Of a DNA stretch of 64,000 nt, positions 6,465-57,860 are shown in pieces. Within the stretch, counting starts at the first letter, position 1. The number at the start of each line of letters is the position of its first letter. The stretch lies in NCBI GenBank assembly GCA_016931175.1, contig JAFGFH010000022.1, positions 17,527-81,526 of the forward strand, in the 5' to 3' direction. A program made the position numbers and the translations under genes. The stretch comes from Nanobdellota archaeon (lineage in GTDB: Archaea; Nanobdellota; Nanobdellia; Tiddalikarchaeales; Tiddalikarchaeaceae). The notes beneath the pieces were generated by a model. That model did no database searches. It had not been told where the DNA came from and saw only the letters and a program-made list of their open reading frames with translations.

Positions 6465-6854
6465 TTATTTCACCTTCTCCGTTTTTTTAGTCTTGAATCT
6501 CTTCTTGTCGCTCAAGTCTAATTCTATTAATTGAACGTTTGAATAGTGTATTTTGAAATCAACTTTTGTTCCGTCTTTCTTCTCTAATTTTACTCCTTCA
6601 AGTAATAGTTTATAATTCCTCCTGTCAACTTTTTCAATCTTTGCCTCTTTGCCTTTGAATTGTCCCCTCATAATCTTAACCTTGTCGCCTTTTCTTGCTC
6701 GAACGCTTCTGACCTTGTAATGCTTCCTTAACTCCTTGCTTAAATTGCATTTCATAATATTCTGCTTAACGTGAAGCGGAGCATTAACTGCGTATTTTCT
6801 CTGCTTGCGTGGTTGCACGCTCTTATTCCATGATTTGCTGAAACTCTTTTTCAT
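6465..6854 (-). CDS. rpl24: 50S ribosomal protein L24 (uL24)
   Basis: 129 aa. KOW motif (KGDKVKIMRGQFKGKEAKIEKV). Confidence 0.94.
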   Translation of the reverse strand: MKKSFSKSWNKSVQPRKQRKYAVNAPLHVKQNIMKCNLSKELRKHYKVRSVRARKGDKVKIMRGQFKGKEAKIEKVDRRNYKLLLEGVKLEKKDGTKVDFKIHYSNVQLIELDLSDKKRFKTKKTEKVK

Positions 6855-6855
6855 A

Positions 6856-7257
6856 TTATACCACTATACTGCTTATCTTTCCTATCTTTGGGAACCTGTC
6901 AACTACTTCTCTTGCAACAGCTCCCTTAATAACGCTTCCCTTAGGGTCTCCTTCCAATGATTTAAGTATTACGCACGCGTTGTCCTCAAACTTTATCCTA
7001 GTGCCGTCGCTTCTCATGTAAGGCATTTTCTGTCTTATTATTACCGCGTTTGCAATCTTCTTCCTCATTGATTGCACTCCTGTCTTAACGCTTACTGTAA
7101 CAACATCACCTATTCCTGCACTCTGCCTCCTCTTCTTAACTGCTTTTCCTAACTTAACAGATACTAGTTCAACTATCTTAGCGCCGCTGTTATCCGCAGC
7201 AGTCATCTTTGCTCCAATATCAAGTCCTCTCGTAACGTTCGCCTTTACTGCCTTCAT
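6856..7257 (-). CDS. rpl14: 50S ribosomal protein L14 (uL14)
   Basis: 133 aa, uL14-like (DNSGAKIVELVSV...GDVVTVSVK). Confidence 0.95.
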   Translation of the reverse strand: MKAVKANVTRGLDIGAKMTAADNSGAKIVELVSVKLGKAVKKRRQSAGIGDVVTVSVKTGVQSMRKKIANAVIIRQKMPYMRSDGTRIKFEDNACVILKSLEGDPKGSVIKGAVAREVVDRFPKIGKISSIVV

Positions 7258-7589
7258 TCATTCACCACTTCCTTGCTTAATACAACGAAGCTCTTAGTCT
7301 TTGATATAGGCCTCGTCTCCATTATTGTTACGAAATCACCATTTCTTGCCTTAATACAGTCAGGATTATGAGCTCTTACCTTTGTCTTCTTCTTAGCAAA
7401 CCTTTCATACTTGGGAATCTTGTATATTCTCTTAAACTCGATAATAACCCCTTTGTTCATCTTATCACTAATAACTCTTCCCCTGAATAATCTTCCGCGA
7501 ACGCTTAATGTTCCATGAAAAGGACAGTTCTTATCAGTACATGCCTCTTTAGGCGCTTCAATTCCTTTTATTCCAACATTTCTTGCCAT
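7254..7589 (-). CDS. rps17: 30S ribosomal protein S17 (uS17)
   Basis: 111 aa. CPFHG zinc-knuckle-like N-terminus typical of archaeal S17. Confidence 0.93.
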   Translation of the reverse strand: MARNVGIKGIEAPKEACTDKNCPFHGTLSVRGRLFRGRVISDKMNKGVIIEFKRIYKIPKYERFAKKKTKVRAHNPDCIKARNGDFVTIMETRPISKTKSFVVLSKEVVNE

Positions 7590-7843
7590 TTATCTTTCAC
7601 CTTATAACTCTTTTTTAACCTCTCATAGGGTCTTTGCAGGACGTCATCCCCTTTTAACAAGACCTTCTCATCTTTTATTCTGAAAAGGAAAACGCTGCCT
7701 TGTTTTGGGATAATCTTCTCCTTATCGTCCTTCAATATTATGAACGTGTTCTTAGTCTCGTCAACAATTAAACCCTTCATCTTTCCCGTTTCAACGTTTA
7801 ATCCGATGAGTTCATGATTGACCAAGTTTTTTTTCGTTATCAT
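7568..7843 (-). CDS. rnp1: RNase P protein component 1 (Rpp29/Pop4 homolog)
   Basis: 91 aa Sm-like protein (ELIGLNVETGKMKGLIVDETKNTFIIL) in the conserved archaeal slot between SUI1 and S17. Confidence 0.8.
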   Translation of the reverse strand: MITKKNLVNHELIGLNVETGKMKGLIVDETKNTFIILKDDKEKIIPKQGSVFLFRIKDEKVLLKGDDVLQRPYERLKKSYKVKDKWQEMLE

Positions 7844-19114: not shown

Positions 19115-19115
19115 A

Positions 19116-19199
19116 CGCTGGGGCTGAGATTTGAACTCAGGCCCACTTGCGTGGACAAGCTTTCCAGGCTTGCGCGTTAGACCACTCCGCCACCCCAGC
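19116..19199 (-). tRNA. tRNA-Ser (anticodon GGA), class II with long variable arm
   Basis: Reverse complement folds as a cloverleaf: acceptor GCTGGGG/CCCCAGC, anticodon stem CAAGC/GCTTG with loop CUGGAAA, long variable arm, T-arm CTGAG-TTCAAAT-CTCAG, discriminator G. No encoded CCA. Confidence 0.8.
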
Positions 19200-19222
19200 A
19201 ATATTATAGAATTGGAGGTTTA

Positions 19223-22529: not shown

Positions 22530-23804
22530 TTATGCTTTCTCAACCTTGGTACAGACTCCTGCACCTACAGTCATTCCCATATCCCTTATAGCGAAAGTAG
22601 CCATTTGAGGGATTGTGTCTTTCTGTTCCATAACCATTGGCCTGCTAGGTTCGAAGACAACGATTGCTGCATCTCCTCTCTTAATAAAGTCCGGCTTCTC
22701 TTCCTTTACAGCACCAGTTCTTGGGTCAAGCTTTGCCTGTATCTCTACGATTTTACAAGCTACTTGAGCAGTTCCTGCGTGCAGTACTGGAGTATAACCG
22801 ACTGTTATTACAGTAGGGTGCTGCAGTACCATAATCTGCGCCTTGAACTTTTTCGCAACTGTTGGCGGGTTATCTGCTGGGCCAAGAACGCTTCCGCGCC
22901 TTATATCCCCCTTTCCGATTCCACGAACGTTGAATCCAATGTTATCACCTGGCTCAGCTTCCTGAACCGATTCGTGATGCATTTCTATAGTCTTTAGTTC
23001 TCCGCCAACATTCTCTGGCATGAAAACTACTTTGCTTCCAACCTTCATTACACCAGTCTCTACCCTGCCTACTGGAACTGTTCCAATACCAGTTATTGTG
23101 TAAACGTCCTGAACTGGAACTCTCAAAGGCAAGTTAGTTGGCTTCTCTGGAGGACTGAACGAGTCAATCTGCTCTAAAAGAGTTGGGCCTTTGTACCAAG
23201 GAGTCTTAGGTCCTTTAGCCTTAACATTAGTAGCATCTGCGTCAACAGCGCTTGTTGGTATAAAGTTGATATCATCAGCTTTGTAACCAACGTTAGCCAG
23301 TAATTTCTTCAAATCCTCAACTACTGCTTTGTATTTAGCTTCGTCGTAGTTGATAGTATCTATTTTGTTTATAGCAACTGCTAATTGTTTTACTCCTTGA
23401 GTTTTTAACAAGAAGACGTGTTCTGTAGTCTGTGGCTGAACACCTTCACCAGCAGCTACTATAAGCATAGCAGCGTCTGCCTGACTTGCACCAGTAATCA
23501 TGTTCTTAATAAAGTCCTTGTGTCCTGGAGCGTCGATAAGTGTTACTTCATACTTTGGAGTCTCGAATTTCTTGTGAGCTAAGTCAATAGTAACTCCTCT
23601 CTTTCTCTCTTCTGGAGAAGCGTCCAAGGCATAAGCGTACTCCCAAGTAGACTTACCAAGTTCTGAAGCTAACTTCTTGAACTTGTCTAACTCTTGGGTG
23701 CTAACAACACCAGTTTCGAACAACATTCTTCCCATTAAAGTTGATTTACCGTGGTCAACGTGACCGACGAAAACCAAGTTTAAATGTGGTTTTTGTTTAG
23801 CCAT
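22530..23804 (-). CDS. tuf: Translation elongation factor EF-1alpha (aEF1A)
   Basis: 424 aa. G1 [10 protein letters not shown]3 DAPGH, G4 NKID. Archaeal EF-1alpha length and domain order. Confidence 0.97.
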
Positions 23805-25222: not shown

Positions 25223-27409
25223 TTACTGGTTCTCGCTCAGTCCTTTTCTCGTTCTTACCTTGGTTATAATGTCTTGCTGCATGCTTCTTGGCAGTTGTTC
25301 AAACTTAGAGTCTACGAGGCTCCATACTCCTCTTCCTTCTGTTACGCTTCTCAAGTCTCCTGTGAATCCGAAGCTTTCATTGACTGGTATTCTCGCAGTA
25401 ACGATTAATTCTTCACCCTCGAATTCAGTGTCGAGTAGTTGTCCTCTTCTGCCTCCAATCAGTTTGCTTATGTTTCCCATGTAAGTGTTCGGAGCATCGA
25501 TTCTTATCTGCTGAACAGGCTCTCTTATTATAGGACTTGCTTCCCTGAACGCTTCCTTTAGTCCGTCTCTTACAGCTGGTATTATCTGCGCTGGTCCCCT
25601 GTGTATGCTGTCCTCGTGGAGTTTAACATCAACTAGTGATACTTTTACTCCTATTACTGGCTCACGGCATAACGGGCCCTCCTTCATAACCTGCTCGAAG
25701 GCGTCAAGTACTGTTTCCATGATTTCAATCATGTGAACCTCACCTTTCGTCTTGTCAACGAACACGTTGCCCTGGAAGATGTCCTTGACTGATTTCGCCT
25801 CTTCCTTGTCCATTCCAGCATTCGCGAGAGCCTCCCATACTTTCTGGTCCTTCTTCTTTATTCTGCCTTCTGAAATCTCTCCCTCGTTTATTGACTTATA
25901 AACTCCTTCCTCTAATGGCTCCACGTATAAGTAGAACTTGTTGTGCTTGTTAGGGCTCTTTCCTTCAACCTCGTTAGGGTTCTTAGCGCTAACACCTTCA
26001 CGATAAACTACGATTGGCGGGCTGACCTTTACTTCAAGCTTCCTCTCCTTGATTATTCTCCTGTCTATTACATCCTCTAAATGCAATTCACCTAGTCCGC
26101 TTATCAAGTGCTCACCGGTTTCTTCATTAATAGTAATCTGAACAGTCGGGTCTTCCTTGCTCACATCCCTTAATACCTGGATTAGTTTTGGCAGGTCTGC
26201 CGGGTTCTTTGCCTCAATAGCTTTGGTAACTACTGGGTCAAATATGTGCTTGATAGCTTCGAAAGGTGTTATGCTAGTCTTGCTGATAGTCTCACCGCTT
26301 GTTGCATTCTTTATTCCAATAATTGCTGCAGTGTTGCCTACTGGTATGCTGTCCAGTGGAACCCTCTTACCGCAGACCATTATGAATACTTTCTGCGCTT
26401 TCTGCTTGCCAGTCTTTGATAATATAACCTCTTCTCCCTCATGCAGTACTCCTGAGAATACTCTACCGAATACTAGTTCTCCAAATGTTGGGTCTGTTGT
26501 TATCTTGGTTACTACGAATACTAGTTCACCGTTAGGGTCGCAGTTCACTAATGATTTACCAACAGCTGATTCCAAGTCTCCTCTCCACAAGTGAGGCACC
26601 CTGTACTTCTGAGCCTTGTCAGGACCTGGGTGGTGCCCGATAGTCATGTCCAATACTACCTCGTGCAATGGTGCTTTTTCTGCAAGTTTTTCAACCTTTT
26701 CTTTTATCTCATCCTCGCTTCCAGTGTAAGCGTCTATAACATCTTTGAATGATAATCCCTTCTTCTGCATCTGGGGTATGCTTAAAGCCCATTTGTGGAA
26801 TGCGCTTCCGAATGCTACGCTTCCGTCCTCAACCCTTACTTGCCACTCTTTTTTGAAATCAGCAGGCGCGAGTGCAGCTATCATCTTGTTAACCTTCATT
26901 ATTGTCTTAATGAATCTCTGCTGCATTTGTTCAGGAGTAATCTTTAACTCCTTCAATAACCTGTCAACCTTGTTTATGAATAATACAGGCTTGACTCTTT
27001 CCCTGATTGATTGCTTTAATACTGTCTCTGTCTGGGGCATTACTCCCTCAACAGCGCATACTACGACTAGTGAGCCGTCAACAGCTCTTAGTGAACGAGT
27101 TACTTCTCCTCCGAAGTCAACGTGTCCTGGAGTGTCAATTAAGTTGATTAAGTAATAATTATCCTTGTAGTGGTGAATCATGGTAACAGCGGTTGCGAGA
27201 ATAGTTATTCCTCTCTGCTGCTCCTCCTCTAAGAGGTCTGTTCCCCTGGCCTGGCCTGCTACTTTGCTTGATAATAACCCAGCACCTGCAAGTAATGAAT
27301 CGCTTAAAGTGCTCTTACCGTGGTCAATGTGAGCTATTATGCCAAGATTTCTTATCTGACTCGGCTGCTTCATTAAGTCCTTAATGTTAATTTCTTCTTT
27401 CTTTGCCAA
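25223..27409 (-). CDS. fusA: Translation elongation factor EF-2 (aEF2)
   Basis: 728 aa. G1 AHIDHGKST, G3 DTPGH, G4 NKVD, and the diphthamide-region His (SIHRGPAQ). Appears to start with TTG. Confidence 0.97.
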   Translation of the reverse strand: MAKKEEINIKDLMKQPSQIRNLGIIAHIDHGKSTLSDSLLAGAGLLSSKVAGQARGTDLLEEEQQRGITILATAVTMIHHYKDNYYLINLIDTPGHVDFGGEVTRSLRAVDGSLVVVCAVEGVMPQTETVLKQSIRERVKPVLFINKVDRLLKELKITPEQMQQRFIKTIMKVNKMIAALAPADFKKEWQVRVEDGSVAFGSAFHKWALSIPQMQKKGLSFKDVIDAYTGSEDEIKEKVEKLAEKAPLHEVVLDMTIGHHPGPDKAQKYRVPHLWRGDLESAVGKSLVNCDPNGELVFVVTKITTDPTFGELVFGRVFSGVLHEGEEVILSKTGKQKAQKVFIMVCGKRVPLDSIPVGNTAAIIGIKNATSGETISKTSITPFEAIKHIFDPVVTKAIEAKNPADLPKLIQVLRDVSKEDPTVQITINEETGEHLISGLGELHLEDVIDRRIIKERKLEVKVSPPIVVYREGVSAKNPNEVEGKSPNKHNKFYLYVEPLEEGVYKSINEGEISEGRIKKKDQKVWEALANAGMDKEEAKSVKDIFQGNVFVDKTKGEVHMIEIMETVLDAFEQVMKEGPLCREPVIGVKVSLVDVKLHEDSIHRGPAQIIPAVRDGLKEAFREASPIIREPVQQIRIDAPNTYMGNISKLIGGRRGQLLDTEFEGEELIVTARIPVNESFGFTGDLRSVTEGRGVWSLVDSKFEQLPRSMQQDIITKVRTRKGLSENQ

Positions 27410-27464: not shown

Positions 27465-27971
27465 TTAACTGATATAAGCGGGTGCAGAAGTGCTTGTTGG
27501 AACAGGATTTACTTTTTCACGAGCCTTCTCGTTTATCTCCTCAGCTGCAGTGTTAACTAACAGGTTATACTCTTCCTTAGTCTTAGGAGGGTAATTCATA
27601 AAATACTTGTTCCAATTCTTGCAGTAATTGTTCAATAAGTCCTTGGCAGTATTATCATCCCTTATATCAGAGTCTAAGTTGGTGTAAACCCTGTCAGTAA
27701 AATCGTTAGTGTTAATCTTTTCACTCTTAACTATGCTCTCTAAACCGCTTTTTTGATTATTAATTACTTTAGGATTACTTTTCACAGTCTTAGGCTTTGC
27801 CAAGTACTTGCTTGCCTGGTTAGTACTAGCAGCTCCGTAAGTCATTATGCTCCCGAATATGAATGCTAGAGGTGCGAATATCGGCGCTGCTATGCAAGCG
27901 GTGAAGTACGCGAAAACTCCTGAAGCGCTTAATCCTCCAAGGTAAGTTATTGCTTTTCCTGCTTTTACCAT
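27465..27971 (-). CDS. Hypothetical membrane protein (168 aa)
   Basis: Two predicted N-terminal TM helices then an Asn/Lys-rich soluble part. A palindrome+TATA motif upstream is shared with the 16827 gene promoter. Confidence 0.5.
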   Translation of the reverse strand: MVKAGKAITYLGGLSASGVFAYFTACIAAPIFAPLAFIFGSIMTYGAASTNQASKYLAKPKTVKSNPKVINNQKSGLESIVKSEKINTNDFTDRVYTNLDSDIRDDNTAKDLLNNYCKNWNKYFMNYPPKTKEEYNLLVNTAAEEINEKAREKVNPVPTSTSAPAYIS

Positions 27972-28070: not shown

Positions 28071-28430
28071 ATGAGTTTCAAGAGTGTTTTGGATCTGGAT
28101 TTTTTAATGATGGATTTGTCACTAGTTTATGAGACGAATAGTGTGTGCAGGGAGGAGATTTTATACGCTGGCGGGAAGAAGATTATAGAAACCCATTATA
28201 CTGTAGAAGGTAAAATGTTCCAATTGAAAGAGAATGATAAGGGTTTTATTCTTAAGAGCAGTGATTCAGTTATTAAAGTTGATAACCTGCTTGAAGCAGT
28301 TAAAAGGGTTTACTTAAAGATTAACTGGAAGCGTTTCAAGAATCAGATAACAAGTGCTGGTTTTGACTGGGAAGAGTTCTACAAAGAGGTTAAGATTAAA
28401 AAACACATGATTAAAAAAGAAGAGATTTAA
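28071..28430 (+). CDS. Hypothetical protein (119 aa)
   Basis: Clean ORF. No motif recognised. Confidence 0.4.
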   Translation: MSFKSVLDLDFLMMDLSLVYETNSVCREEILYAGGKKIIETHYTVEGKMFQLKENDKGFILKSSDSVIKVDNLLEAVKRVYLKINWKRFKNQITSAGFDWEEFYKEVKIKKHMIKKEEI

Positions 28431-29773
28431 ATTACCTGCAAATTAAACAGGGAAAGTAATTCCTCTCTTGGCTTTATCTTTGACCACTCATACAAACTTC
28501 TAGCATCGTCTAACCTTTCTCTTTGAAACAAAGTTTTGTATAATTCTTGCACTACTTCCTTATTTAAATCTGGCTGAACACCTGACCACTCACTCAAATG
28601 TTTAGCCTCATGCATCCATCCTTTTTGAAACAAAGTTTTGAATCCTTCTTGCACTACTTCTTCATTAAAATTTGGCTGAACACCTGACCACTCACTCAAA
28701 AGTTTAGCATCACACATCCATCCTTTTTGAAACAAAGTTTTGTATAATTCTTGCACTATTTCCTCATTTAAATCTGGCTGAATCTTTGACCACTCACTCA
28801 AAAGTTTAGCCACATGCATCCATCCTTTTTGAAACAAAGTTTTGAATCCTTCTTGCACTACTTCTTCATTAAAATCTGGCTGAATCTTTGACCACTCACT
28901 CAAACTTTTAGCAGATTCTACCATTCCTTTTTGAAAAAAAGTTTTGTATAATTCTTGAACTAACTCATCTCTTGGCTGAATCTTTGACCACTCACTCAAA
29001 ACTTTAAACGTATCAAACTGTCTTTCTTGAAACAAAGTTTTGTATAATTCTTGCATGTAAGGTTTTACTTTTCTTAAATCAACCAATTCCTTGAATCCTT
29101 TGCTTGTAATATTATCCTCGCAGCCTAATAAAAAATTAACAAGATGAGTGTTAGCTCTTAACAAATTATTCTCATAAGTCACGTCACCCTCATCCAAAGA
29201 ATCATAATTTCTAAGCAGTGATTCAAGCCTTAAATTAACAACCTTCCTATTATTGCCATTAACTGCCAAACGATTAATTAACTGCTGGTATAACTTGTTA
29301 TCAAAGACATCAAAAGGCGAGTCTAATCCTAAAGCTTGATCGGTTAAATAATGATTAATGAAAAGTATGGCAGAATCAATATTAGCAGTCATCTTAACCT
29401 CATCACTGATTTGCGAATAATCACTCCCGTCTAAAGTCACTGCTTTATGAACGCAGTGAGGCAAACTGCTCAAAACATTAGATTCACCCGTATTATGATT
29501 ATGCTCGTAAGCGTACACACTAAAATGGTCCTCGTCAACATCAACTGCAAAACCAACCTCATTGCCTTCCTCCTCATCAAACAAACTAAGAACAGGACAA
29601 AGAATATACTCAACACCATTAATTGTTGCAGGCCTAACCATGAAATAAGAAGCATCATTAAAAGCATTAGAATTAACAATAGTCTTAAACAAGCCATTAC
29701 CAGAATACTTACTAACAATCTCACTCAAAGCCTCAGGATTTAAAGCCTGATTTAAAACTTCACGACTAATCAT
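28427..29773 (-). CDS. Tandem-repeat protein: ~240-aa unique N-terminal domain followed by six ~34-aa repeats (QELYKTLFQKGWMHEAKLLSEWSKIQPDLNEEVV-type)
   Basis: The protein shows 34-residue periodicity. The underlying DNA has ~102-bp near-identical tandem units with two alternating subtypes. Confidence 0.7.
   Translation of the reverse strand: MISREVLNQALNPEALSEIVSKYSGNGLFKTIVNSNAFNDASYFMVRPATINGVEYILCPVLSLFDEEEGNEVGFAVDVDEDHFSVYAYEHNHNTGESNVLSSLPHCVHKAVTLDGSDYSQISDEVKMTANIDSAILFINHYLTDQALGLDSPFDVFDNKLYQQLINRLAVNGNNRKVVNLRLESLLRNYDSLDEGDVTYENNLLRANTHLVNFLLGCEDNITSKGFKELVDLRKVKPYMQELYKTLFQERQFDTFKVLSEWSKIQPRDELVQELYKTFFQKGMVESAKSLSEWSKIQPDFNEEVVQEGFKTLFQKGWMHVAKLLSEWSKIQPDLNEEIVQELYKTLFQKGWMCDAKLLSEWSGVQPNFNEEVVQEGFKTLFQKGWMHEAKHLSEWSGVQPDLNKEVVQELYKTLFQRERLDDARSLYEWSKIKPREELLSLFNLQVI
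28522..29056. repeat. Coding tandem DNA repeat, ~5.3 copies of a ~102-bp unit (two alternating subtypes, effectively a ~204-bp higher-order unit)
   Basis: Recurring blocks ttgaaacaaagttttg(tataattc|aatccttc)ttgcacta...gaccactcactcaaa at ~102-bp spacing with roughly 85-95% identity by eye. Confidence 0.85.
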
Positions 29774-29812
29774 AAAAGAATTAATAGGGAAAAATGTATT
29801 TAAAAAACTTTC

Positions 29813-30403
29813 TTACCTGCTAGATACTGCTTGTCTCTCTGTCTCTGTCTTCTTTCCTACTGCGAATGATTTCGTGTCATTATCTGCGCTTTGTATTATC
29901 ATTGCTGCAAGCGCTTGAGGAAATGTTGTTTTCTTGTTAGCGCAGTTCTGGTAAGCTCCTTGAGTCATCCACCTGAGTGCTAAGTCTATTCTCCTCTGCG
30001 GAGCAACATCAACTGCTTTAGGGTGCTTGATGCCTCCGTATTCAAGGCTTATTACTTCACTGCACGGGCTCGCGTTTTGAATAGCGTCAACGAGTACCTG
30101 CAATGGGTTCTTTTTAGTCTTGTCTTCTATGATTTTGAAGACTTCCTGAATATTCTTGTACTGAGTCATGTACTTGCCTGTGTTTCTCCCGCTCGTTCTC
30201 CAATGCTTCTTGCCCTTGTGCCCTGTTACGCTCATTTTAAGCATTAATCTCTCAACAATGTGGGCTTTGCTCTTCCAGAACTTCTTCTTCTCATTCCTGC
30301 CCTGACTCTTTGGAATAATGATTGGTTTAATATTAATGTAATTAGTTAATCCCGGGTCTGATACTACCACGCTGCTAGTGTCATACTTGTTGAATAGTTT
30401 CAT
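29813..30403 (-). CDS. rps7: 30S ribosomal protein S7 (uS7)
   Basis: 196 aa uS7 (LVDAIQNASPCSEV...AVDVAPQRR). Confidence 0.94.
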   Translation of the reverse strand: MKLFNKYDTSSVVVSDPGLTNYINIKPIIIPKSQGRNEKKKFWKSKAHIVERLMLKMSVTGHKGKKHWRTSGRNTGKYMTQYKNIQEVFKIIEDKTKKNPLQVLVDAIQNASPCSEVISLEYGGIKHPKAVDVAPQRRIDLALRWMTQGAYQNCANKKTTFPQALAAMIIQSADNDTKSFAVGKKTETERQAVSSR

Positions 30404-30847: not shown

Positions 30848-31261
30848 TTATACCTTTACTATTACTTCCTCTATAGCTGGGAAGTATTTTTTAAGAAGCA
30901 TTTTAGTCTTTTTAACTTTTTTGCTGGGAAAAGCTCTTAATGAGCTTTTAATCACTAAGTTCATAGTATTTCCTTCCAATTCCGCGCTTTTTACAGGTAT
31001 TGGTTTAAACAAGTTGGTTGCAAACTTTTCAGGATCAGGATTGAATTCTATAAGTATTATCTTCTTGTTAAACTTTTTTTCAAGAGCTCTTATATTAGCC
31101 CCTCCTTTTCCTATTGCTTTCCCGAAATCTCCCGGGCTTACTATGAAGACTAAATCATCATCGGATTCAAAACAATCCTTTAAGTTTGCCCTAGTTATTG
31201 ATTCAAAGAGAGCAATCTTTTGTATCGTCGACGTATCTAATTTTATTCTAACTTCTGCCAT
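30848..31261 (-). CDS. nusA: NusA-like KH-domain transcription termination/antitermination protein (archaeal NusA)
   Basis: 137 aa, two KH-like segments with GKGGANIRAL. Canonical position between L30e and S12. Confidence 0.88.
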   Translation of the reverse strand: MAEVRIKLDTSTIQKIALFESITRANLKDCFESDDDLVFIVSPGDFGKAIGKGGANIRALEKKFNKKIILIEFNPDPEKFATNLFKPIPVKSAELEGNTMNLVIKSSLRAFPSKKVKKTKMLLKKYFPAIEEVIVKV

Positions 31262-35274: not shown

Positions 35275-37074
35275 TCAATCCTTGTACTCCACGTTTAGTT
35301 TAGGGTATATGCATAAGCTCTTTAACTCGTCAAGTAAGAGTTTGAACGCGTAACTCATTTCAATAAAGGTTACTGGCGCGTCATCCCCGCATACTGAACA
35401 TACTCCCTTATTCCTGTACTGGTTAATGTAAGCTATTAACCCGCACTTCCTGCATACTGGTATTATTGACTTGTCTGAGTCAAACCTTTCCTTTAATAAT
35501 AGTGCTGAGCCGTGAGCTACTAGTACGTCCTTCTCCATCTCTCCCAGTCTTAATCCTCCTTCTTTGGCGCGCCCTTCTGTTGGCTGCCTTGTTAGTAATT
35601 GTACTGGGCCTCTCGTTCTCATGTGGTACTTGTTAGCTACCATGTATTTTAGTCTCATGTAATAAATGTTTCCTATGAATATCTTAACTTGGAACATTCT
35701 TCCAGTCTTGCCATCGTATAAAGTCTCTGAACCGTTCTCTCTGAATCCGAGAGTGTGAAGTTCTTTTCTTAAGTCAAACTCTGATTCTCCAGTGAAAGCT
35801 GTGCCGTCTATGTATCTTCCCTGAAGCGCTCCAACCTTTCCGCCGATTACTTCTATTAACTGCCCTACAGTCATACGGCTTGGGATACTGTGAGGGCTGA
35901 ATATTATGTCAGGAACTATTCCTTCGCTGGAAAAAGGCATGTCAGTCTTTGGAACCAGCAGTCCTATTACTCCTTTCTGCCCGTGCCTTGTTGCGAACTT
36001 GTCTCCTATCTCTGGTATTCTTGGCTGCCTTACTCTGATGTTTACGAACTTGTTTCCCTCCTCTGATTCTGTGATTATTACTGTGTCAACCGTTCCTTTC
36101 TCTTTAATTACTGCAACGCTTGACTCATGCCTTGATTCAACACCTACCCTGAACTCTTCCATCCCGCTTAGGAATCTTGGAGGACTCGTCTTTCCAATTA
36201 ATACGTCATCGTCTCCTATCTCAGCCTCTGGGAATATGATGCCGTCCTCTTCAAGCTTAGCATAATCTTCTTCAACCCTGTAGCCTGCTACCTCTTTGTC
36301 TGGTATCTCTATCTTGTCCTTGATTCCTCCAGCGTATCTCAACTCCTCACTGTTGAAAGGCTTGAAGAATGTTGACCTGAAAAGTCCTAATTCAACGCTG
36401 TCCTTGTTAAATATTATGGCATCATCAATGTTGTAACCCTCGTGAGTCATTACCGCGATTACAATGTTCTGCCCTACAGGGTGGTTGTCGTATTTAACAT
36501 TCTTGTACATTACTGTATCAACGATTGGGCGCTGAGGGTAATGCATCATGTCAACGTCGCTGTCTAATCTTAAGTTAAAATTAGTAGAGTATATTCCTAA
36601 TCCCTGCGTGAGCATCTTTGCTGCAAGCATTACACGTCCTGCACTGTTATGTTCAGCAAAAGGCGCCAGGCTTGACTGGCTTCCGAATAGTGCAGTCTTT
36701 ATTATCTCCATATGAGTGTGTTCTTCAGTTAATTCATCATCGTCAAAGGCTATGAGTGCGCTCTCTTCCTCTTCAGCGTCCAAGTATTCTATAATATTAT
36801 TAGAGATTAACTGCTTCCAAGTCATTGCTCCCTTCTTTAAATCTTCAACTATTTCTTTGGTAAGCTTTGATTTGCCGTTCTCAACTATTATTAATGGCCT
36901 TCTCGCTCTTCCAGCCTCTGTTAGTATGTTTACGCAGTTCAACGCCTTATCGTATGATACGTTTAAATTAGTTGTTACGTTTGAGTTTCTTCTCTGTTCT
37001 TTTATCCTCTTAACGAAATCGGCGGGGTTTTCAACATCTCCTATTATTACTCCGTTAAAGAACACCTCGCTCAT
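35275..37074 (-). CDS. rpoB1: DNA-directed RNA polymerase subunit B' (C-terminal part of split Rpo2)
   Basis: 599 aa. Rpb2 C-terminal motifs (GQKGV, GEMEKD) and terminal Zn ribbon (CRKCG...CSVCG). Confidence 0.96.
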   Translation of the reverse strand: MSEVFFNGVIIGDVENPADFVKRIKEQRRNSNVTTNLNVSYDKALNCVNILTEAGRARRPLIIVENGKSKLTKEIVEDLKKGAMTWKQLISNNIIEYLDAEEEESALIAFDDDELTEEHTHMEIIKTALFGSQSSLAPFAEHNSAGRVMLAAKMLTQGLGIYSTNFNLRLDSDVDMMHYPQRPIVDTVMYKNVKYDNHPVGQNIVIAVMTHEGYNIDDAIIFNKDSVELGLFRSTFFKPFNSEELRYAGGIKDKIEIPDKEVAGYRVEEDYAKLEEDGIIFPEAEIGDDDVLIGKTSPPRFLSGMEEFRVGVESRHESSVAVIKEKGTVDTVIITESEEGNKFVNIRVRQPRIPEIGDKFATRHGQKGVIGLLVPKTDMPFSSEGIVPDIIFSPHSIPSRMTVGQLIEVIGGKVGALQGRYIDGTAFTGESEFDLRKELHTLGFRENGSETLYDGKTGRMFQVKIFIGNIYYMRLKYMVANKYHMRTRGPVQLLTRQPTEGRAKEGGLRLGEMEKDVLVAHGSALLLKERFDSDKSIIPVCRKCGLIAYINQYRNKGVCSVCGDDAPVTFIEMSYAFKLLLDELKSLCIYPKLNVEYKD

Positions 37075-38570
37075 TCTACCACCTTCTTCATTCCCATCTT
37101 TACTAACTCTTCAACTATTTCTTCATCATTATCATTTGGAACGCTTACCTCGCACATTATGGCAAGGTTCTTTCTTAATCCCACGTTTGTTCCGTCAGGC
37201 GTCTCGCTTGAGCATAATCTTCCGTAATGGCTTGGGTGCAAGTCACGCGCTTTGAAATTCTCCCTCTGGCTTGTTAATAGTGATGCTACTCTTCTTAAGT
37301 GTGATAATGTGCCGAAGAAGTTATTCCTCTCCAAGTGCTGGCTTACTCCTTGTCTTCCTCCAACCCATTGCCCTGTTGCTAAACTGCTCTTTATCCTGCT
37401 CGTTAAAAGTTTTGCTCTTGTAACACTGCTTATGCTTGGCAGTTTGCCTCTCTTAACTAGTCTCTCAAAATTATATTTCATGTCTCCTATGAACATTCTG
37501 AAGCTTACCCTGAATAATGACTCCATCATCTCCCTGCAAAGCCTTAATCTCTTGTTCTTATAATGGTCTTTATCATCTGATTTTATTAAACCATGGCTGT
37601 AAAGCATTAGTTTCCTTATCATATTAGATAAGTATTTTGCCTTTAACACTCTGTCTTCCTTCTTGTGCCCTATGTGAGGGAATAAGAACTTGTCAATAAC
37701 TTCTTCTGCTCTCTCTACTCTTATCTGAGAACTGTAAGTTATTCCCATCTTTTTCCCAACAAGGTTTAATGCATCATTAACAGACTGCAATTCGCTGATT
37801 TTGTAAAGGTTAACGTATATCTCTCCCATGAATTCTTCAGAAAGATTTAATGAGCTAACAACTTCCTGGTCGTCGTTTAATCCTAATGCTTTAAGCACTG
37901 CAAAGACTGGAACTTCTTTTACTCTTGTAAAGTTCATGTTAAGTGTGCCGTCTTTTAATTTGATAACATCGTGAAGTATCTTGTATTGGCCGTCGTCGCT
38001 GAATACCTTTGCAACGTAAGCGTTCGTTGTTGAATTATGCTCTACTAATACCTTGTTAGGCGCCAAGTCTTCAACTACTACTATAACTCTCTCTGTTCCA
38101 TTGATTATGAAATAACCTCCTGGGTCGTTAGGGTCTTCTCCTAACTCTATTAATTCCTCTTCATTCTTCCCGTACAAGTGGCAGTACTTGCTTCTTACCA
38201 TTATTGGCATGTTTCCAACGTGAACCGTCTTCATCTCTTCCTCTATGCCGTCTTTTTCTACAACGATTTCCATAAATATTGGAGCCTCGTAAGTAAGGTT
38301 TCTTATCCTTGCCTCTACTGGCGTGATTATTCTCTTAGTGCCGTCTGCTTCTTTAACACTAGGAGTCTCAACAGTTATTTTTCCAAGTTTTATTCTCAAA
38401 TCACTTACTCCTTTCGGCAAGATGTCTGGTATTATCTCCTTAACCTCTTCAACTATTTTCTGTAGACTCTTATCTGTGAAATTATTGAAGCTTGCAAGAT
38501 TATGATTGGTCAGCATTCTTTCCTTGAAGAAAGTGTCAAGAACTGCTTTGCTTACATCCTTATCCATCAA
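37071..38570 (-). CDS. rpoB2: DNA-directed RNA polymerase subunit B'' (N-terminal part of split Rpo2)
   Basis: 499 aa corresponding to the Rpb2 N-terminal protrusion/lobe/fork. Overlaps rpoB1 start by 4 nt. Confidence 0.96.
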   Translation of the reverse strand: MMDKDVSKAVLDTFFKERMLTNHNLASFNNFTDKSLQKIVEEVKEIIPDILPKGVSDLRIKLGKITVETPSVKEADGTKRIITPVEARIRNLTYEAPIFMEIVVEKDGIEEEMKTVHVGNMPIMVRSKYCHLYGKNEEELIELGEDPNDPGGYFIINGTERVIVVVEDLAPNKVLVEHNSTTNAYVAKVFSDDGQYKILHDVIKLKDGTLNMNFTRVKEVPVFAVLKALGLNDDQEVVSSLNLSEEFMGEIYVNLYKISELQSVNDALNLVGKKMGITYSSQIRVERAEEVIDKFLFPHIGHKKEDRVLKAKYLSNMIRKLMLYSHGLIKSDDKDHYKNKRLRLCREMMESLFRVSFRMFIGDMKYNFERLVKRGKLPSISSVTRAKLLTSRIKSSLATGQWVGGRQGVSQHLERNNFFGTLSHLRRVASLLTSQRENFKARDLHPSHYGRLCSSETPDGTNVGLRKNLAIMCEVSVPNDNDEEIVEELVKMGMKKVVE

Positions 38571-38838: not shown

Positions 38839-38858
38839 CGCCTTTACCTTCCCTTATA

Positions 38859-38932
38859 TGAGCCCGACGGGATTTGAACCCGCGACCCCTTGATTAAAAG
38901 TCAAGTGCTCTGCCAAGCTGAGCTACGGGCCC
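38859..38932 (-). tRNA. tRNA-Lys (anticodon TTT)
   Basis: Reverse complement GGGCCCGTAGCTCAGCTTGGCAGAGCACTTGACTTTTAATCAAGGGGTCGCGGGTTCAAATCCCGTCGGGCTCA folds as a canonical cloverleaf. Anticodon loop CUUUUAA, discriminator A. Confidence 0.88.
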
Positions 38933-39062
38933 ATTCTTTAGAGTATTATTTAATTCACAAAAACCTATTATAAAACTATCGCATCAAAACTTGATTAAAT
39001 CCTCTAAGACTGAACCCAAACATTACCTTTAAAAACAGCTTATTTCTTTTTAAACCTTTCTA

Positions 39063-39884
39063 TTAATAGAATAAAACATTACAATTAGGGTTTAGATTTG
39101 ACAATATCTCAGATGCTTTCTTATCTTCCTTGAATCTTTTTGGCACACTTAAATGTTCCAAGTTCTTAAGCTTAGCTAAGCCTTCTGGGAGAGTGGTTAA
39201 ATAATTATTATTTTTAAGTTGAAAGATTTTTAGATTAACGAGATTACCAATAGTTTCAGGAATTGTTTTTAAAGATGTACATCTAATATCTAGTTCTTGC
39301 AAGTTAATCAAATTACCAATACTATCAGGAATCTTCTCTAAATTATAATATGATTTCATAGTGCCACGACCATTACCACAAGTAACACCTAATACCTTTA
39401 GTTGAGTTAGTTGCCCTATCTCTTCAGGAAGTTCTTTAATATTCCCCATTTCTATAAGTTCTAAATCCTCTAAAGATTCGGATTTAAATAATGATTTTGG
39501 CAAGTAATAAGGATTATGCAAGAAAATAATTTTTAAATGAGTTAATTTAGGTATATATTCTAGTTTGTCTTCTAATTGTAAACAATCTTTTTTTACCTCT
39601 AATTTGGTTATAAAACCGTTCTCTACACTAATTCCTACAGGTTTTTTAAACCAACCTCCCGTAGTTGGGTCGTATCTGCCTATATCTTTCAGACTAAAGC
39701 CATTGTAATAAAGTATGTTAAGTAAAATCTTGTATTCAGAGACTCGTAATGGATAATTAAATTTATCAATATTATCAATTTCAATCCTCATAGTTGGATT
39801 CTTCTGTTCAAAATAGCAAGGACCTGCATTATCTAAAGGAGGTATTTGCATGCTTTGGCTTTTACCTTGGTTGCGACTCATCAT
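39063..39884 (-). CDS. Leucine-rich repeat (LRR) protein
   Basis: 273 aa. C-terminal half is consecutive ~23-aa LxxLxxLxLxxNxL repeats (IGNLINLQELDIRCTSLKTIPETIGNLVNLKIFQLKNN...). Confidence 0.75.
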   Translation of the reverse strand: MMSRNQGKSQSMQIPPLDNAGPCYFEQKNPTMRIEIDNIDKFNYPLRVSEYKILLNILYYNGFSLKDIGRYDPTTGGWFKKPVGISVENGFITKLEVKKDCLQLEDKLEYIPKLTHLKIIFLHNPYYLPKSLFKSESLEDLELIEMGNIKELPEEIGQLTQLKVLGVTCGNGRGTMKSYYNLEKIPDSIGNLINLQELDIRCTSLKTIPETIGNLVNLKIFQLKNNNYLTTLPEGLAKLKNLEHLSVPKRFKEDKKASEILSNLNPNCNVLFY

Positions 39885-57575: not shown

Positions 57576-57746
57576 TAAATAATTGATTAACTAATGATTT
57601 TTAATGTTTTTCTTAATAAATCCCTATCAAAATTATCTTTTTGTTTTTAAAACATAAAGTTAAAAAGTAATACATTTGTCATACTCATATAGAGAAGCAA
57701 AGTGAGGGGTTACACAACAACGGCATAACCCGAACACTCTGAACCA

Positions 57747-57818
57747 CGCCCTGACTGGGATTCGAACCCAGGTTATCGGCGTGACAGACCAATGTCCTAA
57801 CCACTAGACTATCAGGGC
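57747..57818 (-). tRNA. tRNA-Asp (anticodon GTC)
   Basis: Reverse complement GCCCTGATAGTCTAGTGGTTAGGACATTGGTCTGTCACGCCGATAACCTGGGTTCGAATCCCAGTCAGGGCG folds as a cloverleaf. Anticodon loop CUGUCAC, T-arm CTGGG-TTCGAAT-CCCAG, discriminator G. Its 3' 12-14 nt are the repeated cassette-boundary core. Confidence 0.85.
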
Positions 57819-57860
57819 AATATTAGAATTATGGGATTATAGTGTTTTTAAAGTTTTTTC

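Follow-up and report, generated by a model that had tools for sequence, protein, structure and literature searches.

An Acidic Two-Module Protein of Nanoarchaeia and Asgard Archaea with a Predicted, Apparently Fast-Remodelled Repeat Solenoid

The Repeat Gene and Its Product

The window considered here is a stretch of 64,000 nucleotides from a Nanobdellota archaeon (contig JAFGFH010000022.1, positions 17,527 to 81,526 of the forward strand), and its subject is a gene on the minus strand, at 28427-29773 of the window, which encodes a protein with six tandem repeats of about 34 residues and lies between the genes for S7 and EF-2. This gene is real and intact. It appears in the list of open reading frames (ORFs) as a complete, uninterrupted coding sequence of 448 codons plus stop, and its product is 100% identical to the NCBI entry 'MAG: hypothetical protein JW791_04340 [Nanoarchaeota archaeon]', from a metagenome-assembled genome (MAG). 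The Nanoarchaeota host is a tiny archaeon of symbiotic type.

The 448-residue protein is composed of two modules, namely a constant N-terminal domain (N-domain; residues 1-235, encoded at 29069-29773 on the minus strand) and a six-unit repeat array (residues 240-441). The N-domain is non-repetitive, was delimited from alignments of relatives, and makes up 52% of the protein. Thus, the preliminary description of this DNA, according to which the protein was built from six repeats of about 34 residues, was right about the six units (32 or 34 residues each) and overlooked the non-repetitive half. In the same alignments, residues that are invariant or nearly so include E72, G74, F75, L104-P105-H106-C107, and F157-D158..L161-Y162-Q164, and the motifs E-x-G-F-A, L-P-H-C, and F-D-x-x-L-Y-x-Q-L served as the criterion for the N-domain family. 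The window protein matches the hidden Markov model (HMM) of the N-domain with an E-value of about 1e-124 and the HMM of the repeat with six units. An AlphaFold2 model of the N-domain (predicted local distance difference test score, pLDDT, 83.4; predicted template modelling score, pTM, 0.83) points to an alpha/beta domain with a five-stranded antiparallel sheet at residues 47-103 and long helices.

This domain stands apart from the known families that were searched. Neither in the window protein nor in 27 N-domains of the family was a Pfam or NCBIfam family detected over this region, and the model has no Foldseek match in the PDB (best E 0.45) or in BFVD. Three candidate assignments were discarded. 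A match to RALGAPB_N (E 1e-6, 29.2 bits against a cut-off of 27) was judged spurious, since it covers 35 residues at the end of the profile and is summed over the repeats. A PD-(D/E)XK nuclease was rejected because the Pet127 match (E 0.007) occurs in only one of 27 members and the conserved lysine of the (D/E)xK motif is absent. A cysteine protease or metal site at L-P-H-C or C59 finds no support in the structure, and in distant members neither H109 nor the G-C-E-D-N motif is conserved.

The protein is acidic, with an isoelectric point (pI) of 4.89 as a whole, 4.59 for the N-domain, and 5.32 for the array, compared with a median pI of 8.5 for the long ORFs of the window; arrays across the family have a median pI of 5.7. 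This charge disfavours generic nucleic-acid binding and would make a protein ligand, possibly a basic one, more likely. The same MAG holds a second copy of the N-domain on another contig (JW791_01095, P0160; 145 residues, 76% identical to the window copy), which represents a paralogue that is truncated or else a fragment of a gene. A look-up of exact proteins returned no record for the window gene or for this shorter copy.

The Repeat Array

Tandem Repeats Finder describes the segment 28522-29055 both as 5.3 copies of a 102-bp period (83% matches, score 625) and as 2.6 copies of a 204-bp period (85% matches, score 726), and repeat finding placed six in-register copies at spacings of 102, 102, 102, 102, and 96 bp. 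It is the only large array of the 64-kb window, where no other tandem repeat scores above 84, which places it far beyond chance. All six units are encoded on the minus strand. Unit 1 (residues 240-271, 28961-29056) is a 32-residue N-terminal unit, MQELYKTLFQERQFDTFKVLSEWSKIQPRDEL, that corresponds in alignments to the first unit of every orthologue. Units 2 (residues 272-305, 28859-28960) and 4 (residues 340-373, 28655-28756), both of 34 residues, belong to a subtype termed LY here, and units 3 (residues 306-339, 28757-28858) and 5 (residues 374-407, 28553-28654), of the same length, to a subtype termed GF, with 92% DNA identity between the latter two. Unit 6 (residues 408-441, 28451-28552) ends the array and is followed by a tail of seven residues and the stop codon (28427-28450).

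Among the four internal units, identity lies at 78-92% in DNA and 65-82% in protein; the terminal units 1 and 6 share 61-72% of their DNA with the internal units and, depending on the register, 72-77% with each other. Both terminal units look like capping units, N-terminal and C-terminal, respectively. The period of 102 bp noted in the preliminary description is therefore correct, and so are the peptide units that it quoted, which occur in the translation, whereas the term 'near-identical' is too strong for these repeats. Over the whole array, units differ at 8-39% of their bases and the longest exact match between units measures 63 bp; since this is shorter than a sequencing read, a collapse of the array in the window is unlikely.

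The substitutions among the internal units follow two conflicting patterns. Nucleotide sites 10, 11, 14, 48, 90, and 96 alternate, with unit 2 equal to unit 4 and unit 3 equal to unit 5, which defines the LY and GF subtypes and supports a duplication of two units. However, a cluster of four bases at sites 73-76 (KI against GV in the protein) groups units 2 and 3 against units 4 and 5, a distribution that requires gene conversion between neighbouring units. Thus, the array is a mosaic; the alternation of subtypes reported earlier is present, and the clean higher-order unit of about 204 bp is not.

At the protein level, the unit follows a family-wide signature, [VI]-Q-x-x-Y-x-x-[LY]-h-x-x-G-x-h-x-x-h-x-x-L-x-E-x-[TS]-G-[IV]-x-P, and over 744 units of the family Q2 is conserved in 96%, Y5 in 92%, L20 in 81%, and P28 in 100%.

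Concerted Evolution and Variability

Units of one protein resemble each other more than they resemble units of orthologues. Mean unit identity amounts to 0.56-0.79 within a protein against 0.35-0.58 between orthologues, the nearest unit lies in the same protein for 27 of 27 internal units, and the N-domains of those orthologues are 44-76% identical. Together with the mosaic conversion sites, these values bear out the concerted evolution proposed in the preliminary description: the repeat units are homogenised within lineages.

A related population provides a view of shorter time scales. Five contigs (L004, L013, L014, L015, and L006), which derive from different metagenomes and from the NCBI MAG CG07_land, have N-domains that are 100% identical and flanks that are 99.3-99.9% identical. 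The samples behind L004, L013, L014, and L015 are of the Crystal Geyser type. The comparison of copy number across metagenomes that had been recommended at the outset found three arrays among them, one of 4 units (379 residues), a different one of 4 units (377 residues), and one of 6 units (441 residues). Across 3.4 kb, exactly four differences separate L004 from L013: an insertion of 96 bp and a deletion of 102 bp, each of one unit, a single-nucleotide polymorphism, and an intergenic indel of 1 bp. L014, with 6 units and an N-domain identical to that of L004, has unit sequences that are missing from L004, so that the difference is not a simple collapse or expansion of one array. Length polymorphism of the repeat gene was thus found in this related population, from short-read assemblies, and not in the window genome. 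The unit changes are in frame and alter the length and the surface of the protein, not its expression. They do not support the contingency locus that the preliminary description called likely, if the term is taken strictly for reversible on/off or programmed switching.

The distribution of substitutions within the unit was mapped over 97 pairs of units from the same protein, with 60-99% identity. Positions 2, 5, 8, 12, 14, 17, 20, 23, 24, 26, and 28 change in 0-19% of pairs; substitutions are found in 52-67% of pairs at positions 4, 7, 11, 13, 15, 16, and 19, and in 46% at position 3. Placed on the predicted helices, this pattern has helical periodicity, with a fixed core and two variable exposed helix faces, and does not resemble a two-residue code. 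In the window array, 26 nucleotide sites vary among the four internal units, of which only one or two are synonymous, and pairwise pN/pS values (nonsynonymous against synonymous changes per site) of these units range from 1.0 to 4.9.

In the related population, an intergenic element of 58-114 nt with the core GGAGTGCAACCAAAAAGGGTGTGCC flanks the orthologue on both sides (L004, 4145-4258, 5468-5581, and 6750-6863); it also occurs in L006, L013, L014, and L015, and is found again beyond the next two genes, which form a nucleotidyltransferase-like pair. The window lacks this element, for which no stable fold is predicted (z 0.33); it could mark the boundary of a cassette or be a shared regulatory element. 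No direct or inverted repeats that would mark a mobile cassette flank the window gene.

Distribution of the Family and Domain Fusions

A word-indexed search returned 10 relatives of the window protein, and an exhaustive HMMER search of 1.84 billion cluster representatives returned 215 at E<=1e-3, 36 of them at E<=1e-30. A local HMM found the N-domain in about 38 of 150 listed representatives, and the repeat HMM found 744 units in 143 proteins, also cluster representatives, with 1-13 units each and a period of mostly 32 or 34 residues. All relatives with an organism name are archaea, either Nanoarchaeota/Nanoarchaeia (DPANN) or Asgard archaea; this distribution rests on the sources that carry such a name, since a few records are named only 'archaeon'. 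Within the Asgard archaea, the family occurs in Promethearchaeota, including a scaffold of 3.7 Mb, Lokiarchaeia, Sigynarchaeota, and Odinarchaeia. The search for the 34-residue unit in other archaea that the preliminary description had called for was thus successful in both groups. The same architecture is found in more than 15 independent assemblies. A scan of viral contigs with the N-domain gave no match, and a large protein search with the repeat profile returned none.

Several relatives extend the two-module plan. P0027, encoded on the 3.7-Mb Promethearchaeota scaffold, has a canonical C-terminal Ras/Roc domain (Pfam Ras, 7.7e-26), and the Asgard proteins P0018, P0021, and P0027 carry a divergent P-loop GTPase-like module ahead of the N-domain, with GxxxxGK[ST] and NKxD motifs. 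Ras/Arf matches of the P0021 module are sub-threshold only, and a cluster mate of P0018 bears the JGI label SR-beta. A protein of 1535 residues (L017, 1303-5907) fuses the N-domain, the repeats (termed VQ..Y repeats after their signature), and leucine-rich repeats (LRRs), which also occur at the C-terminus of P0091. P0018 has tetratricopeptide repeats (TPRs) in a separate C-terminal region, and P0011 and P0020 end in C-terminal hydrophobic anchors. The Asgard fusions suggest that the N-domain works with small GTPases. Whole-gene tandem paralogues were also observed, at 6553-7812 and 8001-9275 of L005 (Promethearchaeota) and at 2-1519 and 1708-2889 of L012, an unclassified archaeal contig.

Predicted Structure and Relation to Known Repeat Families

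The AlphaFold2 model of the full protein, built on an alignment of 10 sequences, has a mean pLDDT of 81.5 and values of about 90 across the array. In each modelled unit, two helices of 14 and 11 residues are joined by a short turn at the conserved G and followed by a linker of 7 residues, and the six units are predicted to form an alpha-solenoid. With this model as the query, the best Foldseek match in the PDB is the RNA-bound designer pentatricopeptide repeat (PPR) protein 6een (E 1.5e-4, probability 1.00, 19% identity), followed by plant mitoribosomal PPRs and cPPRs. These PPR matches, which include 5i9f and 4wn4, have E-values from 1.5e-4 to 1e-2 and 18-23% identity; consensus TPR designs enter the list only at E-values of about 0.1-0.2. 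Since the TM-scores of the PPR matches are 0.17-0.30 and the root-mean-square deviations 10-17 A, the PPR likeness appears to be one of local hairpin geometry and not of the whole superhelix.

Sequence comparisons do not place the repeat in a PPR, TPR, or transcription activator-like (TAL) effector family. None of the models of these three groups matches the window protein at E<=1, where the PPR models comprised Pfam PF01535, PF13041, PF13812, PF12854, and PF17177 and NCBIfam TIGR00756. Likewise, 89 repeat-only relatives contain no PPR or TPR Pfam family at E<=0.1, and TIGR00756 matches one of the 89 weakly (E 0.0077). An hhalign comparison of a three-unit profile with a PPR consensus gave a probability of 6.7% over 13 columns. 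The preliminary remark that the repeat matches neither the TPR nor the TAL-effector (TALE) consensus was thus correct. The weak matches that recur among the 89 relatives are HHH_3 (13 of 89, best 1e-7), ComEA-type helix-hairpin-helix (HhH; 6 of 89), UBA_8, RPT, and DnaJ, and in a PDB profile search the segment L-x-E-L-T-G-I-x-P-x-x-S-E-E-x-V-Q-x-A-Y aligned to helices I-II of a J-domain at an E-value of about 0.04. These HhH, UBA, and J-domain matches most probably reflect one generic motif, a helix, G-h-x-P, and an N-capped helix, and not homology. PDB sequence searches with full-length and three-unit profiles reached chance level only, with a GntR regulator, J-domain helices, and a butanol dehydrogenase, the last at an E-value of 4e-4 over one helical stretch. 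No HhH fold occurs among the top 50 Foldseek matches and no TALE structure among the top ones.

The comparison with known systems clarifies what is shared and what is not. Like PPRs, the protein has tandem units of about 34-35 residues that are modelled as helix-turn-helix pairs in a solenoid, a glycine at the turn between the helices, and a unit that ends in G-I-x-P. In contrast to PPRs, helix A is shorter, the linker longer, and the array acidic, the invariant Q2 and Y5 are not PPR features, variability extends beyond code positions such as 5 and 35, and no PPR HMM matches. PPRs are essentially eukaryotic, whereas the present family is archaeal (DPANN and Asgard). With TPRs, which are typical protein-binding scaffolds, the protein shares the 34-residue period and, in the model, the solenoid of alpha-alpha hairpins. 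However, no TPR profile matches the window protein or ranks among the most frequent families of the 89 relatives, and the pattern Q2, Y5, G12, L20, T24-G25-I26, P28 of the present repeat does not fit the TPR pattern W4-L7-G8-Y11-A20-F24-A27-P32. TAL effectors also have two-helix units of 33-35 residues, highly similar DNA repeats, and arrays reshuffled by recombination. Nevertheless, their repeats are nearly identical and differ at a two-residue variable site, whereas the units described here are 78-92% identical in DNA, as noted above, and vary at about 8 or more exposed positions of an acidic protein. HhH membership is likewise not supported, since the window protein has no HHH match and the family consensus lacks the second glycine. 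Finally, relatives that join the N-domain and the array to Ras/Roc-type GTPases, LRRs, or TPRs recall the LRR-Roc proteins of ROCO type and the repeat-bearing STAND/NLR-like proteins, in which the repeat module is also the fast-evolving part. However, the window protein has no NTPase domain, COR, NACHT, and NB-ARC were detected in no member, and Foldseek did not match the N-domain to any solved ROCO structure.

On these grounds, the repeat is a new and unnamed sequence family among the alpha-alpha hairpin solenoids, a class that is already known. There are precedents both for repeat proteins of the alpha-solenoid kind and for repeat genes with length polymorphism; what is new here is the repeat family itself, the orphan N-domain, their range across DPANN and Asgard archaea with GTPase and LRR fusions, and the apparent strain-level remodelling. 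A literature search found no relevant account of PPR-like repeats in DPANN or Asgard archaea.

Genomic Setting and Expression Signals

The repeat gene is flanked by S7 (29813-30403) and EF-2 (25223-27409), both verified with Pfam, as the preliminary description had placed it. The series of genes that leads to it runs from rpoB'' (37071-38570) and rpoB' (35275-37074) through rpoA'/A'', L30e, NusA-KH (30848-31261), S12, and S7, and continues beyond it with ORF119 (28071-28430, plus strand), ORF168 (27465-27971, minus strand), EF-2, and EF-1alpha (22530-23804). Thus, two further unannotated ORFs share the gap between the repeat gene and EF-2. ORF119 is convergent and overlaps the stop codon of the repeat gene by 4 bp, and ORF168 is hydrophobic in its N-terminal third; no Pfam or NCBIfam family was assigned to either of them, and the retrieved loci contain no counterpart.

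The distance from the S7 stop codon to the start of the repeat gene is 39 nt, and this spacer contains GAAAG-TTTTTTAAATA. A promoter-like element at 29797-29812 (minus strand) combines the purine-rich GAAAG, similar to a transcription factor B recognition element (BRE), with TTTAAATA (29797-29804), which ends 24 nt ahead of the ATG. The orthologue in L010, another Nanoarchaeia MAG, has a matching TTTTTAAATA(C/T)ATTTTT...ATTAAT motif at an equal upstream distance. By the archaeal BRE/TATA consensus, this element would be a dedicated promoter that gives a leaderless or near-leaderless mRNA. Downstream, two T6 tracts at 28413-28418 and 28398-28403 (minus strand), 9-14 and 24-29 nt past the stop codon, are candidate oligo-T terminators of archaeal type. 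With its own putative TATA-like promoter and oligo-T tracts, the repeat gene looks like its own transcription unit and not like a cistron of the S12-S7 operon.

The position next to S7 is common to two loci of a second Nanoarchaeia lineage, L003 and L010, in which S7 is 74% and the N-domain 76% identical. The earlier notion of an insertion into an ultra-conserved block is therefore to be qualified: the gene does adjoin S7, with a putative promoter and terminator of its own and in a position shared by a second lineage. More distant family members lie in unrelated gene contexts, and the apparent neighbour clusters in an analysis of 13 non-redundant loci turned out to be overlapping-frame ORFs or LRR proteins. 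An LRR protein gene (39063-39884, minus strand; Pfam LRR_14, 2.9e-19) is located 9 kb from the repeat gene, and LRR proteins adjoin family genes in two other Nanoarchaeia loci (L007, 2808-3665; L009, 170-715 and 14595-15839), so a functional link between the LRR and VQ..Y repeat types is possible. In the window (35275-38570, minus strand), as in L003 and L010, separate B'' and B' genes encode RNA polymerase subunit B; the Promethearchaeota locus L005 (1-853) encodes this subunit as a single protein of 1123 residues. The difference strengthens the view that the family does occur in two distinct archaeal groups. The window also contains three tRNA genes on the minus strand, Ser-GGA (19115-19200), Lys-TTT (38858-38933), and Asp-GTC (57746-57819), of which tRNA-Lys separates the LRR gene from the polymerase cluster at its rpoB'' end; no other Rfam family was found in the window.

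A Proposed Adaptor or Sensor and Its Alternatives

The explanation that we favour, at roughly even odds (a probability of about 0.5), is that of an acidic two-module adaptor or sensor, in which a fast-remodelled solenoid gives binding specificity, most likely for protein, to a constant N-domain. The standalone gene would encode a cytoplasmic protein whose N-domain serves as a constant partner or effector module, the part that Asgard relatives join to small GTPase-like modules, LRRs, TPRs, or a membrane anchor. Within each unit, the presumably buried positions 2, 5, 8, 9, 12, 14, 17, 20, 23-26, and 28 stay fixed, and the exposed faces of both helices (positions 3, 4, 7, 11, 13, 15, 16, and 19) vary between units. 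Unequal recombination, with gain and loss of whole units, and gene conversion between units probably remodel the array, so that each lineage, and apparently each strain, has its own. The solenoid may thereby act as a fast-evolving surface for a ligand, most likely a protein, which it would deliver to the constant N-domain. The architectural and evolutionary parts of this proposal are well supported; the functional part is inferred.

Several observations weigh against the proposed adaptor or sensor. The conserved-neighbour analysis of the 13 loci found no partner gene common beyond close relatives. The best structural matches are RNA-binding PPRs and the gene lies among transcription and translation genes, both of which favour an RNA-binding protein instead. 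The strain-level differences of the array come from short-read metagenome assemblies in which mis-joins are possible, and several contigs end inside the array. Moreover, the excess of nonsynonymous change, though suggestive, is not significant alone (binomial P about 0.15 for at most 2 synonymous sites out of 26, with 17% synonymous sites).

Among the alternatives, the one that deserves most attention, with perhaps one chance in five, is a generic scaffold or spacer without a specific ligand, in which the turnover of units would be neutral slippage or recombination and only length would matter. Values of pN/pS near 1 in several unit pairs, the range of 1-13 units across the family, and the lack of a conserved partner gene are in keeping with it; however, the core signature is strongly kept over the 744 units, the variability of the exposed faces has helical periodicity, and the repeat is reused with partners of sensor type (LRR, GTPase). 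A PPR-like RNA binder, in which each unit would contact one or a few nucleotides of rRNA, tRNA, or mRNA, is a somewhat weaker candidate and rather unlikely. A role of this kind in ribosome biogenesis or translation would account for the position between S7 and EF-2, and the position next to S7 in two Nanoarchaeia lineages, the Foldseek matches, the period of 34 against 35 residues, and the resemblance of the G-I-x-P end to the PPR 'GIKPD' all speak for it. Nevertheless, neither the PPR profiles nor hhalign recognise the repeat, the global TM-scores are low, the protein and the arrays of the family are acidic, variation is spread over many exposed positions instead of the two or three code positions of PPRs, and the gene, apparently with its own promoter, changes context in distant members.

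A more ambitious form of recognition, in which the array would be the hypervariable specificity module of a system common to DPANN (Nanoarchaeia) and Asgard archaea, with a constant, GTPase-associated N-domain and a solenoid in which exposed residues and the number of units are reshuffled at strain level, is slightly less probable still, at little better than one chance in ten. It is very improbable that the units form a degenerate HhH array of the kind known from ComEA, RuvA, or topoisomerase V, in which helix B, the T-G-I-x-P hairpin, and helix A of the following unit would contact the DNA backbone without sequence specificity. This reading draws on the HHH_3 and NCBIfam ComEA matches described above and on an HHH_5 match in P0033 (2.4e-7, above the gathering score), whereas the window protein has no HhH match at E<=1, the first hairpin glycine is K in half of the window units, and the second glycine of G-h-G is present in none. 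In addition, no HhH protein was retrieved by Foldseek among the matches considered, J-domain helices I-II and UBA match the same segment equally weakly, which indicates a generic helix-loop-helix likeness, and the array is acidic. Least credible of all is an assembly artefact or a decaying pseudogene, with an array or a copy number created by mis-assembled repeats. Although the contigs of many relatives end inside the array and the same MAG holds the 145-residue paralogue, the frame is intact across six units, the units differ at 8-39% of their bases, their longest exact match is shorter than a read, and independent assemblies repeat the architecture.

Significance

The gene at 28427-29773 defines an undescribed helical repeat and an orphan N-domain, in a family whose members with an organism name all belong to two poorly understood archaeal groups, the DPANN Nanoarchaeia and the Asgard archaea; the repeat recurs with eukaryote-like signalling parts, namely Ras/Roc-type GTPases and LRRs. 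The apparent change of repeats between near-identical strains is typical of molecules of recognition or conflict. The family could, moreover, extend the set of modular repeat scaffolds if its ligand were found. If there were no specific ligand, the family would still be a tidy case of concerted evolution in an archaeal repeat protein. If the hypervariable recognition system were real, the gene would be a determinant of self/non-self or partner recognition, in immunity or symbiosis, and the array might join PPR, TALE, and ankyrin arrays as a new, modular and engineerable scaffold for binding. The ligand, if found, could reveal how small-genome archaea recognise hosts, viruses, or cellular partners.

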